Positions 2,095-6,236 of a stretch of 26,889 nucleotides of DNA are shown piece by piece; position 1 is the first letter of the stretch; each line of letters begins with the position of its first letter. This stretch comes from a virus (taxonomy: Duplodnaviria; Heunggongvirae; Uroviricota; Caudoviricetes), in the IMG/VR virus record IMGVR_UViG_2537562020_000004; one strand, written 5' to 3'. The notes under the pieces were generated by a model. The model was not told the DNA's origin and did no database searches. It saw nothing but the letters and a program-made list of their open reading frames with translations. The position numbers and the translations under genes were made by a program.

Positions 2095-2546
2095 AACACC
2101 AGCAAACAGATAAAAAAGGGCCAGCCAATTGGCCAGCCCTTCTTAACAGGATGTCGCTTAAGCGAAATCTTAGTTAAGACGCTCCCAATAAAACCACATA
2201 AAAAACATATAATTATAATAAAAACAATTAGTTAATTTAATTTTTAATGCAGTGAATTGCAATATTCTGCAACCTCCGCCGCCACTTTGCCGCCACTTAA
2301 AGCTTTATACCACACAGACTTTAGTATACCCGAGTGAAACGCTAACACATGAGGTAGTTGGAAAATTTCCGTATATGTTGTAATATTGATACGCATTATA
2401 TGATTTTTACCTGATATAATGTAATTATTAGCTTCAAAATTATTTTTGCACGAATCAGGTATTACCAAGTAGTTGTCAGTTTTTAAAAACCCAACATCCT
2501 AAAATTAGCATTGTTTTTTAACCACAAAACATCCACGGAGAAGAAC

Positions 2547-3356
2547 GTGTCAAAAAAGGATACAATCCAGATTATCGATATCAGGATGCAGAGACCAATC
2601 ATAGCAAGAATAGAAGAAGAAAATTTAAATTTGACATTGCAAATGTCAGATAAAGCCACATTATCTGGTGCGACAGTTAGTTTTTTCACCCCAAATAACG
2701 TTTCTATATTCTTATCCTCAGCAAAAAAAGAGCTCTCAAAATCCAATTCTATATATAAAAGTCTTTTTGGAAAAATACACAAAACCAAACATAAAAACTT
2801 TAAAATTTCCGACAAAGACCTGCCGAGACTCTATAATTACTTTGAATCAATTCAGACGGCCATTATTTCTATGTATACTGCAATTGAGTCTTTTGCAAAT
2901 ATATGCATACCACATGATTATGTTTATGAAAAAAACAATGCCAAGGGAATCAAAGAATCCTATAGCAAAGAGCTAATTGAGCGATATATACCAACAAGTG
3001 AAAAAATAGATAAAATCCTACCGTCTATTTTAAATTGTGATTCGCCTAAAGGTTCAAAACTATGGCAAGATTTTAAAAGCCTTGAGTCACTTAGAAATGA
3101 CATAATTCACCCCAAGACAACAAAGAAAAACACAGAAACAAAAGAAGACTCATCTTTTTTATGCATTTTACTATCAGATGACTTTATAAAAAAAGTTTCC
3201 TGTGGATTTGATTTGGTATCTTATTTTTGCAAACAAGACACTACTCATAGTCTTTTCCCAATGGGTTTCGGTGAAATTGAACTTAAACCTGTCCCAATTA
3301 AAGCCGGTGACTTTGAAAAAGTTGATGATCATGATGAAATAGAATTACCATCATAA
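2547..3356 (+). CDS. AT-rich hypothetical protein (~270 aa) with a HEPN-like R-x4-H motif; prophage-border cargo gene
   Basis: Long ORF with strongly AT-biased codon usage unlike its neighbours; GTG start 2547 preceded by GGAG (2537-2540); motif SLRNDIIH at nt 3093-3110; followed by a hairpin. No family recognised. Confidence 0.6.
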   Translation: MSKKDTIQIIDIRMQRPIIARIEEENLNLTLQMSDKATLSGATVSFFTPNNVSIFLSSAKKELSKSNSIYKSLFGKIHKTKHKNFKISDKDLPRLYNYFESIQTAIISMYTAIESFANICIPHDYVYEKNNAKGIKESYSKELIERYIPTSEKIDKILPSILNCDSPKGSKLWQDFKSLESLRNDIIHPKTTKKNTETKEDSSFLCILLSDDFIKKVSCGFDLVSYFCKQDTTHSLFPMGFGEIELKPVPIKAGDFEKVDDHDEIELPS

Positions 3357-3369
3357 CAAAAAAACACAA

Positions 3370-3400
3370 ACCATAAAGACGGCCATAGGTGGTCTTTATG
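3370..3400. terminator. Hairpin (10 bp stem ccataaagac/gtctttatgg, 11 nt loop) between convergent genes; likely bidirectional terminator
   Basis: Perfect 10 bp inverted repeat; flanked by a T-run on the minus-strand side (rc of 3352-3369) and TTTAC on the plus side. Confidence 0.5.
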
Positions 3401-3472
3401 GTTTACAATAGACGCAGCCGTTATTAAATTTAAATCCAACAGCGTTAAAATAAACTAACAATATACGCATAA

Positions 3473-4513
3473 TTAATCTTTCCATTTAAAACCATTACAT
3501 AATGTTAAAGGATTAAATGTTACAGCCTCCTCAAGATGATCCGGGGAGAAATGTGCATACTTCATAGTTTCACGAATATTCGCATGACCGAGTATACGTT
3601 GCAGCACAAGAATATTCCCGCCATTCATCATAAAATGAGCGCCGAAGGTATGACGCAGAACGTGTGTCTTTTGCCCTTCCGTCAGTTCGATATCCGTTAG
3701 TTTGAGCATCTTTTTAAACTCCTGATAGCAAGGCTTAAACATCTTTCCCTGCCTTTCAGATAATTCGTCATACAACCATTTTGGGATCGGAACGGTTCGA
3801 TTCTTTTTCCCTTTCGTTTTGGTGAAGGTCAGTTTATGTGGCGAGAGCTGGGGACGTGTCAACCTCTCAGCCTCACCCCATCTAGCACCTGTTGCAAGAC
3901 AAATCTTAACAATCATGGTGAGGTCTTCTTTTCCGTATTGCTCGCATGCCTGAAACAATTTCGGAATTTGAGACAAAGTGAGCCAAGACATTTCTTTCTC
4001 GGCTTCCTTGAAAACACGGACTCCATCAAGTGGATTTGGTAAGCTCCACTCCCCTAGCCTTTTGAGCTCATTAAATACAGCCTCAAGATATTGTTGCTCA
4101 CGATTGACAGTTATCGGTTTAGCAATCCATTTTGCCGGGTCTTTATGATAGCCATTATCTATCTCCCCCCGAAGTCGGCGGTCACGGTAATGAGCCCAAT
4201 CTTTAGCAGTAAGGCGGGATGCAATAGGGTCACCAAGTCCATTACACACGATTTGAAGTTTAGCTAACCGCGACTTACTGGCGACCAGTGCCTGTCCGTG
4301 TAAATTATGCCAAAGCTGGATAATCTCACTTAAGCGTCGGCGGTCTTCTTTCTTGCCGAGCCACGGCTTATCCTCACTCTCACTTTTCGTAAATGCTTCG
4401 AATGCCTCGGCCTCACCTTTGGTATTGAATTGCCGACGTATACGCCGCCCTTCTCGACCATTTGGATAGAGCTCGCATAACCATTTGCCATTTTTTTGCT
4501 TACTTACAGTCAT
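3473..4513 (-). CDS. int: Phage integrase, tyrosine recombinase (346 aa)
   Basis: C-terminal catalytic region HVLRHTFGAHFMMNGGNILVLQRILGHANIRETMKYAHF typical of tyrosine recombinases (R..H..R..Y); located at the prophage end next to the repressor. Confidence 0.9.
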   Translation of the reverse strand: MTVSKQKNGKWLCELYPNGREGRRIRRQFNTKGEAEAFEAFTKSESEDKPWLGKKEDRRRLSEIIQLWHNLHGQALVASKSRLAKLQIVCNGLGDPIASRLTAKDWAHYRDRRLRGEIDNGYHKDPAKWIAKPITVNREQQYLEAVFNELKRLGEWSLPNPLDGVRVFKEAEKEMSWLTLSQIPKLFQACEQYGKEDLTMIVKICLATGARWGEAERLTRPQLSPHKLTFTKTKGKKNRTVPIPKWLYDELSERQGKMFKPCYQEFKKMLKLTDIELTEGQKTHVLRHTFGAHFMMNGGNILVLQRILGHANIRETMKYAHFSPDHLEEAVTFNPLTLCNGFKWKD

Positions 4514-4535
4514 AATGTCACCGAGGCAACTCTAA

Positions 4536-4874
4536 TTATTCCCAAAGTGCTGTTGCAGCATCCATTACAGGATCCAAAGGAATTTTTACGCCTGCATACT
4601 CCGGGCTATCTTTCCAAACAGTATCAATATTGCTCCCCTCAAGCTTTCCAGACTTTACTCCATCAATCGCAAAACCATTTAATGGGTATCGGTCATCTGT
4701 TGCTTTGTCGTACACAAAGGCATATTTACCGTTGACACAAGACACCGTAGCTTTTTCAAAAGTTAACGGCCAATCCTCACCAAACTTAGCGCCATCTAAA
4801 TCCTGTGTTTTTTCAGCGGCTGAGGCTCCAAAAGAAAGGGTAAGAAGCAGAGCTAAAAAGAGTTTACATTTCAT
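4536..4874 (-). CDS. Small secreted protein (112 aa) with N-terminal signal peptide; cargo gene between cI and int
   Basis: Start MKCKLFLALLLTLSFGASA-AEK (signal peptidase I-type site), RBS AAGGGA upstream; tightly packed between cI stop (4883) and int start (4513) on the same strand. Confidence 0.6.
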   Translation of the reverse strand: MKCKLFLALLLTLSFGASAAEKTQDLDGAKFGEDWPLTFEKATVSCVNGKYAFVYDKATDDRYPLNGFAIDGVKSGKLEGSNIDTVWKDSPEYAGVKIPLDPVMDAATALWE

Positions 4875-4882
4875 AATGTCCC

Positions 4883-5743
4883 TTACACGTGTTTTTCCAA
4901 TGTGAAAACTACAGCCCCGGCAGGAGTAATGTCTGTAATGTTGCATTCAAACTCAGCAGACTTATTTGACAACCTGACTTTTCCACCGGGCAAGCGAATT
5001 ACATCAAAAACATCAAGAGCGCCGTCGATATCAATTAACCAGCGACCATTACTTATATTCGAAGCAGAACAGTCGACAAGCCAAGAGGCAGCTACACCGT
5101 CAACAAAAATCAATTCCCCTGAGTTAGAAGGAATCATTGAGGGGTCAGGATGCCACGTTCCTGCATCCTTAAGCTCACCAGATTCAAGACGAGATTTTTT
5201 AATAGAAAAACCAGATGTGACATCTTCCCTGTTAGCTCGCATTTGCCCCTTGCCTGTTGCTAACCATTCCAGTGACGTATCGGTATCAAGAGCGCATGTA
5301 ACAACAACATCACCAGGGAAAAAATCTCGCCTTACCCATGTGCTAATTGTGCCAGAGGAAATGCCGAGCAAATCACCGAGCTCCTTTTGCATGGTAAAGC
5401 CATACGCATCAAGAATCCTACGCAAAACGGTTTTACCACCATTCGTCATAATCTCGTCATAAAGCTCTTTGCCTTTTAACTTGCAACTGGCTCGCTCGTG
5501 ATTTGCATTTGCAAGTTCTCCATTTACAAGCCAATTGATATCAGCTCCCGTGTCAAGACAACACCTAACTATGACATTGCCAGGTATTGCATCACGCTGA
5601 ACCCAGCCGCTAACGCTGTGTTTAGCGATACCTAGCAGGTCAGCCAAATCCTTTTGCATCTTGACCCCATAGGCTGACATTAAGCGTTCCAATACGCCGT
5701 TCGTTGCACTAACACGCCACTGAACATCAAGCTCAGAACTCAT
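4883..5743 (-). CDS. cI: Phage 186-type CI immunity repressor (286 aa) with tandemly duplicated N-terminal DNA-binding domain
   Basis: Two consecutive ~60 aa segments (AYGVKMQKDLADLLGIAKHSVSGWVQRDAIPGNVIVRCCLDTGADINWL and AYGFTMQKELGDLLGISSGTISTWVRRDFFPGDVVVTCALDTDTSLEWL) resembling the 186 CI N-terminal domain, plus a CI-like C-terminal domain; divergent from apl/cII. Confidence 0.85.
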   Translation of the reverse strand: MSSELDVQWRVSATNGVLERLMSAYGVKMQKDLADLLGIAKHSVSGWVQRDAIPGNVIVRCCLDTGADINWLVNGELANANHERASCKLKGKELYDEIMTNGGKTVLRRILDAYGFTMQKELGDLLGISSGTISTWVRRDFFPGDVVVTCALDTDTSLEWLATGKGQMRANREDVTSGFSIKKSRLESGELKDAGTWHPDPSMIPSNSGELIFVDGVAASWLVDCSASNISNGRWLIDIDGALDVFDVIRLPGGKVRLSNKSAEFECNITDITPAGAVVFTLEKHV

Positions 5744-5772
5744 AAAAACCCCTACAGATAATTTTATGGGTG

Positions 5773-5801
5773 TTTACAGAAAACTTTTTACGATCTATAG
5801 T
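5773..5801 (+). promoter_or_regulatory. Sigma70-like promoter (TTTACA-N17-TATAGT), candidate lytic promoter pR in the cI/apl switch region
   Basis: -35 TTTACA (5773-5778), 17 nt spacer, -10 TATAGT (5796-5801), oriented toward apl. Confidence 0.45.
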
Positions 5802-5864
5802 GGCATTCATCGACCAAGATGCACACCACTGCACTACATTTCAAACAACAGGAGATAATGCGAT

Positions 5865-6236
5865 ATGTCAGATGCAAAATCAATCTCGACGCACGACTCG
5901 CAAAACTCACAAAATCAAACTGTGCTGCTAGATCCAACACAGTTTGATGCCATCGTTACCGCCATGCTGCCAGCTCTACAGACAATGATTCGCTCCGCTA
6001 TGTCAGACACGATGACTGTGAAAGACTTCGCCGCTACTCGCGGTGTTAGCGAGCGTCTGGTCTGGCAATGGCTCGATGAGGGAGGCCTTCTCAAAGCTCC
6101 GACCAAAGACTTTTCCAACAAAGAAGAAGCTGCTAAACGAAGCCGAACCCTCGTAAACGTAAAAGCATGGCGCGATAAGCTGACTCAACAAGCGATTGAT
6201 TGTCGCTACATCGACCAGCGCACCGCTCTTAACTGA
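5865..6236 (+). CDS. apl: Apl/Cox-like HTH regulator/excisionase (123 aa as called; true start may be internal)
   Basis: Strong RBS AGGAG upstream of ATG 5865; HTH-like segment TVKDFAATRGVSERLVWQWLDEGGL; first gene of the rightward early operon opposite cI. Confidence 0.6.
   Translation: MSDAKSISTHDSQNSQNQTVLLDPTQFDAIVTAMLPALQTMIRSAMSDTMTVKDFAATRGVSERLVWQWLDEGGLLKAPTKDFSNKEEAAKRSRTLVNVKAWRDKLTQQAIDCRYIDQRTALN

Follow-up and report, generated by a model that had tools for sequence, protein, structure and literature searches.

Proteins of the DUF2511/YebY family have only two studied members, and no biochemical function has been agreed for them. E. coli YebY, encoded by the third gene of the yobA-yebZ-yebY copper-uptake operon, has been located to the periplasm by experiment (PMC8689200); it reduces the copper uptake that depends on YebZ and has been discussed as a possible 'safety valve' (PMC11923076); its Cys48-Cys113 disulfide has been called strictly conserved, replacement of Cys48 or Cys113 by Ala or Ser abolished expression, and reduction lowered the Tm by ~5 C (PMC8689200). 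The other member, MlbQ from Microbispora (PDB 2MVO/6QFP), is an NAI-107 self-resistance lipoprotein with a long unstructured linker, and it has been proposed to bind its producer's lantibiotic (PMC8689200).

On the phage side, the 2021 paper on E. coli YebY already mentioned that homologues of yebY occur with a recombinase gene on one side and a phage CI repressor gene on the other (PMC8689200). The record annotations of phages 186 and K139 assign cI and the genes behind it to one 'lysogenic operon' driven by pL; in 186 cI and int overlap by 1 nt, leaving no gene between them, and in Vibrio phage K139 (Peduoviridae) the order is cI-orf2-glo-int, glo being annotated in GenBank as 'periplasmic protein; involved in phage exclusion'. 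Glo goes back to the primary paper of Nesper et al. (1999), and a paper citing that work describes it as an unusual soluble periplasmic superinfection-exclusion protein.

The stretch of DNA analyzed here, referred to as the window, comprises 26,889 nucleotides of a virus of the Caudoviricetes (IMG/VR record IMGVR_UViG_2537562020_000004) and carries a DUF2511/YebY-family gene between cI and int. The same slot is filled in phage PsP3 by gp28 (NP_958085.1; cI, 8 nt, gene, 22-24 nt, int), a protein of equal length and with an equal signal peptide, to which the window protein is 92% identical over the full length and 95.7% identical over residues 21-112. The window allele differs from its PsP3-type relatives in having W111 and C3 where they have C111 and R or H at position 3; moreover, the int of the window is a different allele (dS>1) and is followed by a 1.2-kb low-GC cargo insert.

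Gene anatomy and family assignment

The gene comprises 112 codons, from an ATG at 4874 to a TAA at 4538..4536 on the minus strand (Table 1), and its product reads MKCKLFLALLLTLSFGASAAEKTQ...ATALWE. An earlier note on this DNA, made from the letters alone, had described a 112-codon gene on the same strand as cI and int and separated from them by 8 and 22 nt; both distances are exact (4875..4882 and 4514..4535, respectively), and its statement that 186 has no gene at this position agrees with the overlap of cI and int in that phage. From the end of cI to the start of the gene the sequence reads ...GTG TAA GGGACATT ATG. The cI/DUF2511 gap is 8-9 nt in 70 of the 71 tabulated loci (the exception being locus L035), and the spacer before int measures 21-25 nt among the relatives. 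GC3 is 0.32 in the DUF2511 gene, 0.39 in cI and 0.42 in int.

Table 1. Positions of the features discussed in the text, in window coordinates
Feature	Position	Strand	Basis
DUF2511/YebY-family CDS, 112 aa (PsP3 orf28/gp28 orthologue; WP_001394631.1)	4536..4874	-	ORF list, Pfam, PHROG, RefSeq
Predicted signal peptide, codons 1-19 (MKCKLFLALLLTLSFGASA), predicted cleavage before A20	4818..4874	-	sequence features
Codon 46, TGT = Cys46, equivalent to YebY Cys48	4737..4739	-	invariant in 77 family members; aligned with YebY 'LTC'
Codon 111, TGG = Trp, equivalent to YebY Cys113	4542..4544	-	DNA alignment
cI, PsP3-type long repressor, 286 aa	4883..5743	-	Pfam: two Phage_CI_repr HTH + CI_C
cI stop TAA (4885..4883) overlapped by SD-like AAGGG (4884..4880), putatively serving the DUF2511 gene	4879..4885	-	sequence
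22-nt spacer with int ribosome-binding region (..GGTGACATT ATG)	4514..4535	-	sequence
int, P2/186-type tyrosine integrase, 346 aa	3473..4513	-	Pfam Int_N + Phage_integrase
Candidate lysogenic promoter pL, TTGATT-17-CATTAT, ~105 nt upstream of the cI ATG	5855..5883	-	8/12 matches
Candidate lytic promoter pR, TTTACA-17-TATAGT, facing pL	5773..5801	+	promoter scan, 10/12
Repeated 10-mer, site at the DUF2511 start	4866..4884	-	
Repeated 10-mer, site at the int start	4505..4523	-	
First lytic-operon gene in apl/cox position, 123 aa	5865..6236	+	Pfam search without match
ORF of 269 aa, 32% GC (window 50%), in the low-GC stretch 2290..3470	2547..3356	+	Pfam search without match

The ORF is a genuine gene and not a chance ORF, because the domain search suggested in the earlier note assigns its product to Pfam PF10709 (DUF2511/YebY; 59.5 bits against a cut-off of 21, E=4.5e-16, profile positions 5-86 of 87), because it matches PHROG 2950 over its full length (E=1.3e-51), and because its dN/dS is 0.14. 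Two plus-strand ORFs that overlap the region (4496..4735 and 4630..4905) were dismissed, since the Pfam match and the codon-level constraint both lie on the minus strand. No NCBIfam model and no PADLOC defense-system model matches the window DUF2511 protein. By sequence, YebY (7N0J) is its sole relative in the PDB (E=3.4e-6), with 28% identity between the window protein and E. coli YebY. An AF2 model built on a 77-sequence family alignment has a mean pLDDT of 90, with low confidence in the signal peptide only, and predicts the fold of YebY and MlbQ, a four-stranded antiparallel sheet packed by helices; it replaced a poor first model (pLDDT 66) built on 16 close homologues only. A HMMER search of 1.84 billion representative proteins returned 770 DUF2511 family representatives, among which the PsP3-type clade is set apart, one representative standing at 1e-43 and the next at 1e-20.

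Among 50,697 phage records searched by tblastn, the protein was found in PsP3, SEN1, Midge, vB_EcoM-613R3, SW9, SI22 and the Klebsiella phage RCIP0057, all of which carry orthologues; that of Midge is annotated as a 'putative periplasmic protein'. The window protein is moreover identical to the annotated RefSeq protein WP_001394631.1, found in E. coli genomes that are 100% identical. The gene and its neighborhood are thus already known, as PsP3 orf28/gp28, as a RefSeq DUF2511 annotation and, for the recombinase/CI neighborhood, from the YebY paper (PMC8689200), and the novelty implied in the earlier note falls away. The literature on PsP3 gp28, phage DUF2511 and BTP5/PsP3 yielded nothing on function, phenotype or expression, and two proteomics papers listing a 'DUF2511 protein' were set aside as not assignable to a prophage copy.

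Several further features of the region may be recorded. An identical 10-mer, GACATTATGA, occurs twice, once across the start codon of the DUF2511 gene (TAAGGGACATTATGAAATG) and once across that of int (GGTGACATTATGACTG), and may be the footprint of a cassette insertion that duplicated the translation-initiation region of int. The window CI, 97.9% identical to PsP3 CI, has two tandem Phage_CI_repr HTH domains (residues ~13-70 and ~106-169) before the CI C-terminal domain, whereas 186 CI has one; an earlier comparative paper attributes 'a longer C-terminal domain' to PsP3 CI. The 123-aa protein encoded in the apl/cox position belongs to PHROG 3554 (unknown function) and gives a weak match to a Cox-like excisionase PHROG (E=1.5e-4), which fits the earlier remark that the Apl/Cox analogue of PsP3 is a singleton. 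Scans of the whole window gave no Rfam match and no tRNA gene.

Predicted export and probable lysogenic expression

Judged from the n-, h- and c-regions and the AxA site in the sequence, the window DUF2511 protein carries a predicted classical Sec/SPase-I signal peptide, as had been claimed from the letters alone: an n-region MKCK (+2) is followed by a hydrophobic core of 11 residues (L5-F15, mean Kyte-Doolittle 2.6) and by a c-region G-A-S-A, with the AxA site A17-S18-A19 ahead of A20. The 'A-AEK' cleavage junction is kept in nearly all alleles, and in the AF2 model residues 1-20 stand apart from the folded domain, with low pLDDT. Neither a lipobox nor a twin-arginine motif was found in the N-terminus. 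The predicted mature protein has ~93 aa, a mass of 10.2 kDa and a pI of 4.4, and we infer that it is periplasmic; the predicted signal peptide thus corresponds to the extracytoplasmic location of the PF10709 family.

The pL candidate upstream of cI was read from the sequence, its 8/12 matches falling below the threshold of the promoter scan; its position is analogous to that of pL in 186 and K139, and its hexamers are conserved in seven divergent loci, in a stretch that also holds the start of the apl-like gene. On the minus strand from 3473 to 5743 the promoter scan found no promoter-like site; terminator-like sites on this strand are absent from cI and from the DUF2511 gene, whereas int contains two weak ones. 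Co-transcription of cI and the DUF2511 gene in lysogens is thus strongly indicated, because no internal promoter-like site was found, the gaps are too short, and a plausible pL/pR pair lies upstream. A classical moron has its own promoter and terminator; here there is no space for either in gaps of 8 and 22 nt, and the scan found neither of the two on the minus strand at this place. By its sequence context, the DUF2511 gene therefore looks like operon-embedded cargo and not like an autonomous moron.

Linkage to the immunity repressor and evolution of the module

The order cI-DUF2511-int was found in 65 of 65 IMG/VR loci encoding a relative, each with a divergent apl-like gene, cI, DUF2511 and int separated by gaps of 8-9 and 21-25 nt, and in all isolated phages examined (6-8, of which PsP3, SEN1, Midge, 613R3, SW9, SI22 and RCIP0057 are named). 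A PsP3-type long CI (at least 73% identity) occurs in 10 records of the phage database, and DUF2511 occurs in exactly these 10. More distant representatives (~25-51% identity) were sampled as well, and all nine were found in P2-like or prophage-type surroundings; for six of them the upstream gene can be seen, and each time it encodes an HTH repressor, whether a short CI, a long CI or an XRE type. Thus the gene follows a short 186-type CI and precedes int in P0020, follows a long CI and precedes int in P0022, follows a short CI in P0024, a long CI in the prophage remnant P0021, an XRE-type HTH protein on the P2-like contig P0023 and an HTH_3 protein in the phage-switch-like region of P0028; P0025 and P0030 are P2-like contigs in which it lies beside D/U/ogr genes, and P0019 is of the type of IMG/VR loci L052-L053, with the order cI-DUF2511-int. 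These contexts point to a sizeable phage-borne DUF2511 subfamily tied to the repressor, in which the constant feature appears to be the position as next gene after the repressor on the same strand, with any repressor type. In loci L077/L078 (1..4400) a degraded prophage with a long cI, DUF2511 and a bPH_3/SHOCT gene lies immediately beside chromosomal copD(yebZ)-yebY, such that an integrase fragment adjoins yebY and two DUF2511 paralogues stand within 4 kb; this adjacency could be a coincidence, or a hint as to how a phage first acquired yebY.

In bacterial chromosomes, window positions 3400-5800 are 100% identical to at least 11 complete E. coli chromosomes among the matches listed. Among 5,426 complete E. 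coli genomes, 18 match at 99% or more and 73 carry the module at some identity (~1.3%). The module of E. coli S3 lies beside yfiB, where a 186/PsP3-like (Eganvirus) prophage has its left end, and its genes bear the annotations 'phage repressor protein CI | DUF2511 domain-containing protein | site-specific integrase'. The cI-DUF2511-int module also occurs in Salmonella, Klebsiella and Enterobacter.

The DUF2511 gene is under purifying selection, yet its protein changes faster than those of its neighbors: the median pairwise dN/dS, computed for DUF2511 among 42 distinct alleles, is 0.14 (median dN 0.38), compared with 0.11 for cI (median dN 0.21) and 0.03 for int (median dN 0.04). The two genes upstream of int do not diverge in step; locus L064 is 87% identical to the window in cI and only 48% in DUF2511, and in locus L027 cI is 79% and DUF2511 92% identical. 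The DUF2511 alleles have thus been reassorted relative to the cI alleles. When per-site variability was tabulated, synonymous sites being saturated between allele groups, 28 of 92 mature positions proved invariant in the PsP3-type clade, including WPL, SC.N, strand 51-55 (Y.FV), TD.RYP..G, VK.GK.EG and V86/P91; the most variable positions (29-30, 49-50, 57-58, 68, 70, 81, 85, 92-94 and 99-101) lie in turns and on helix surfaces. This is the pattern that a functional, fairly fast-evolving surface-interaction protein would be expected to give; alternatively, the faster evolution could reflect weaker constraint or hitch-hiking with recombination of the immunity region.

The window int shares 90-95% protein identity with other PsP3-type integrases with synonymous sites saturated (dS>1), whereas the window cI is nearly identical to the cI of the same loci (dS 0.04-0.1); a recombination breakpoint near the DUF2511/int junction is therefore indicated. 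This int allele travels with the insert that contains the 269-aa ORF, placed between the attL arm-site region and int. E. coli 222, 613R3 and PsP3 do not have this insert, and the distance from their int to yfiB or attP is ~170 bp. The 269-aa product matches PHROG 17113 (unknown function; E=1e-180), gives a weak match to a PADLOC RT-associated HEPN model (E=1.2e-4) and contains an Rx4H motif (RNDIIH); a HEPN-type defense or abortive-infection cargo gene is possible.

Other genes occupy the interval between cI and int in related phages. Locus L035 has an extra ORF of 134 aa (3570..3974) between cI and DUF2511, with a signal peptide and no family match; loci L048-L051 and P0021 have a gene for a bPH_3 (bacterial-PH) plus SHOCT protein after DUF2511 (in L048 at 4355..4861, 168 aa); and Klebsiella phage 4LV2017 has an unrelated 349-aa ORF between cI and int. 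Considered with the K139 arrangement, the cI-int interval thus has the appearance of a cargo slot.

Proposed role and comparison with known systems

The best reading of the locus as a whole, to which a probability of roughly 0.45 is assigned, is that of a PsP3-type accessory gene whose product would be a lysogen-expressed periplasmic binding protein of the YebY fold, probably protective. The core of this reading, namely a lysogen-expressed, exported accessory protein of the YebY family, is very probable. The proposal of the earlier note that the gene is a lysogen-expressed accessory, and not a regulatory or integration gene, is well supported by the comparison of loci, since the gene is in every case the next one behind the repressor and shares its strand, the gaps could not accommodate a promoter, cI and int are not separated by any terminator-like site, and the product is predicted to be exported. 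The gene would be transcribed with cI and int from the lysogenic promoter, so that the protein would be made continuously in lysogens; it would be exported by Sec, and in normal alleles it would be oxidized to form a Cys46-Cys111 disulfide. It would take no part in repression or integration and, like the two studied family members, would probably be a small binding protein working outside the cytoplasm, where inner membrane and periplasm meet. The preferred function is protection of the lysogen and its prophage, by superinfection exclusion or by sequestering an incoming envelope-active protein or peptide. This protective or exclusion role, proposed by analogy with Glo, YebY and MlbQ, is tentative, and the odds stand somewhat against it. 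It is favored because the phage proteins form an old subfamily apart from the chromosomal cluster, because they vary by up to ~50% between otherwise near-identical phages, because the slot is shared with other accessory genes, and because the lysogen already has its own yebY. Against the reading as a whole stand the low overall dN/dS, the fact that functional data, available for a single E. coli family member, speak for copper and not for phage exclusion, the weak consensus match of pL and, in this copy, the loss of the disulfide.

The last of these points, which the earlier note does not mention, is the basis of a rival explanation. Codon 111 is TGC or TGT (Cys) in E. coli 222, PsP3, 613R3 and Midge; Trp111 occurs only in the window and two identical IMG/VR loci (3 of 71 tabulated), the other 68 complete alleles having Cys. 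In the family alignment (n=77) Cys46 is invariant and the Cys111 column is at least 90% Cys, and a Cys lies within the last four residues in 144 of 166 fetched family proteins. The cysteine pair of PF10709 is thus incomplete in the window protein, with Cys46 present and Trp at position 111, and the mature protein would therefore have a single unpaired cysteine and may be unstable; the window allele may be destabilized or weakened through loss of the disulfide partner. In its strong form this argument says that the window gene is a crippled allele giving little or no stable protein, kept only because int has to be read through it, and we regard this, independently of the other readings, as a serious contender, only a little short of even odds. 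The abolished expression of the YebY Cys48 and Cys113 mutants (PMC8689200) argues for it, as does a second change, R3C, which alters the signal peptide of the window allele. On the other hand, the ORF is intact, and the W allele has persisted or spread, since 18 of 5,426 complete E. coli genomes and 2 metagenome contigs carry it, a near-identical Cys allele being found in 22 further complete E. coli genomes; comparison with the nearest Cys alleles still gives a dN/dS of 0.15-0.23, the C-terminal Cys is absent from a few other family members too, and the Trp could pack against the sheet.

An explanation through copper would have the phage protein act like YebY on the host YebZ (CopD)/YobA (CopC) importer, so that less or more copper would enter the lysogen and, as a consequence, its mar-dependent antibiotic tolerance or NDH-2 activity would change. 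The shared fold and family point in this direction, as do the facts that co-expressed YebY lowers YebZ-dependent copper accumulation, that the AZY operon is needed for mar induction, and that AZY-type operons occur in Salmonella, Klebsiella, Enterobacter and Shigella, covering the hosts of the PsP3-type clade (PMC11923076); in one prophage remnant, too, the module lies directly beside chromosomal copD-yebY. Nevertheless this explanation is unlikely, given that identity to YebY is low (28%), that the phage-borne subfamily is deeply diverged from the chromosomal cluster (1e-43, then 1e-20), that the lysogen already carries its own yebY, and that the copper affinity of YebY is low and was judged not physiological (PMC8689200); alleles of otherwise near-identical phages, moreover, differ by up to ~50%, which does not sit easily with a host target that is itself conserved. 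It is barely credible that the protein serves the phage itself in regulation, integration or the establishment of lysogeny, for although the gene lies between cI and int and always accompanies the PsP3-type immunity region in sequenced phages, its product starts with a predicted cleavable signal peptide and is a member of an extracytoplasmic family, the gene is missing from 186 and from many CI-type Peduoviridae, its alleles recombine independently of those of cI, and unrelated cargo is found in the same slot.

The reading as a lysogen-expressed, probably protective periplasmic protein can be extended to the subfamily as a whole. Peduoviridae keep a diverged copy, at ~25-100% identity and behind three repressor types, where expression in the lysogen should be guaranteed, and this retention argues that the fold is useful at the envelope independently of the copC/copD operon. 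A broader proposition, which we consider rather doubtful, is that phage-borne YebY is a distinct old subfamily kept behind the repressor for an envelope-level lysogen phenotype, being either a new exclusion or anti-bacteriocin factor built on the MlbQ/YebY ligand-binding fold or a YebY mimic that rewires YebZ copper import and mar-dependent tolerance. The function of the phage gene could, by extension, inform that of YebY. What is added here is modest: the breadth and constancy of the linkage to the repressor across Peduoviridae, the cI-int cargo slot with its parallel in Glo, and C111W.

Compared with the described systems, the window gene differs from E. coli yebY in lying in a prophage lysogeny operon and not in a copper-uptake operon; it is not beside copC/yobA and copD/yebZ, as an AZY orthologue would be, and its neighbors are cI and int in all loci examined. 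It differs likewise from MlbQ, a lipoprotein encoded with ABC transporters in a lantibiotic cluster, in that the window protein has no lipobox, with no Cys at +1 of the cleavage site, and no such neighbors, its context being a phage lysogeny operon. The likeness to Glo is one of position and probable location. Both phages are of the P2 family and CI-type, and in each the gene forms part of the lysogenic operon, with cI before it and int after it; Glo is a soluble periplasmic protein, as the window product is predicted to be; that the latter would be an envelope-located product of a lysogenic operon follows from its cI-int position and predicted signal peptide. Glo has 137 aa and is separated from cI by orf2, whereas the window protein has 112 aa and is encoded directly after cI. 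Glo was considered and rejected as a DUF2511 homologue (hhalign probability 1.8%, and the window protein has no PADLOC match to a known exclusion system), and an exclusion role is proposed on positional analogy only, because Glo is not homologous. As a positional and functional analogue, Glo may nonetheless be the closest known example of how the window gene works.
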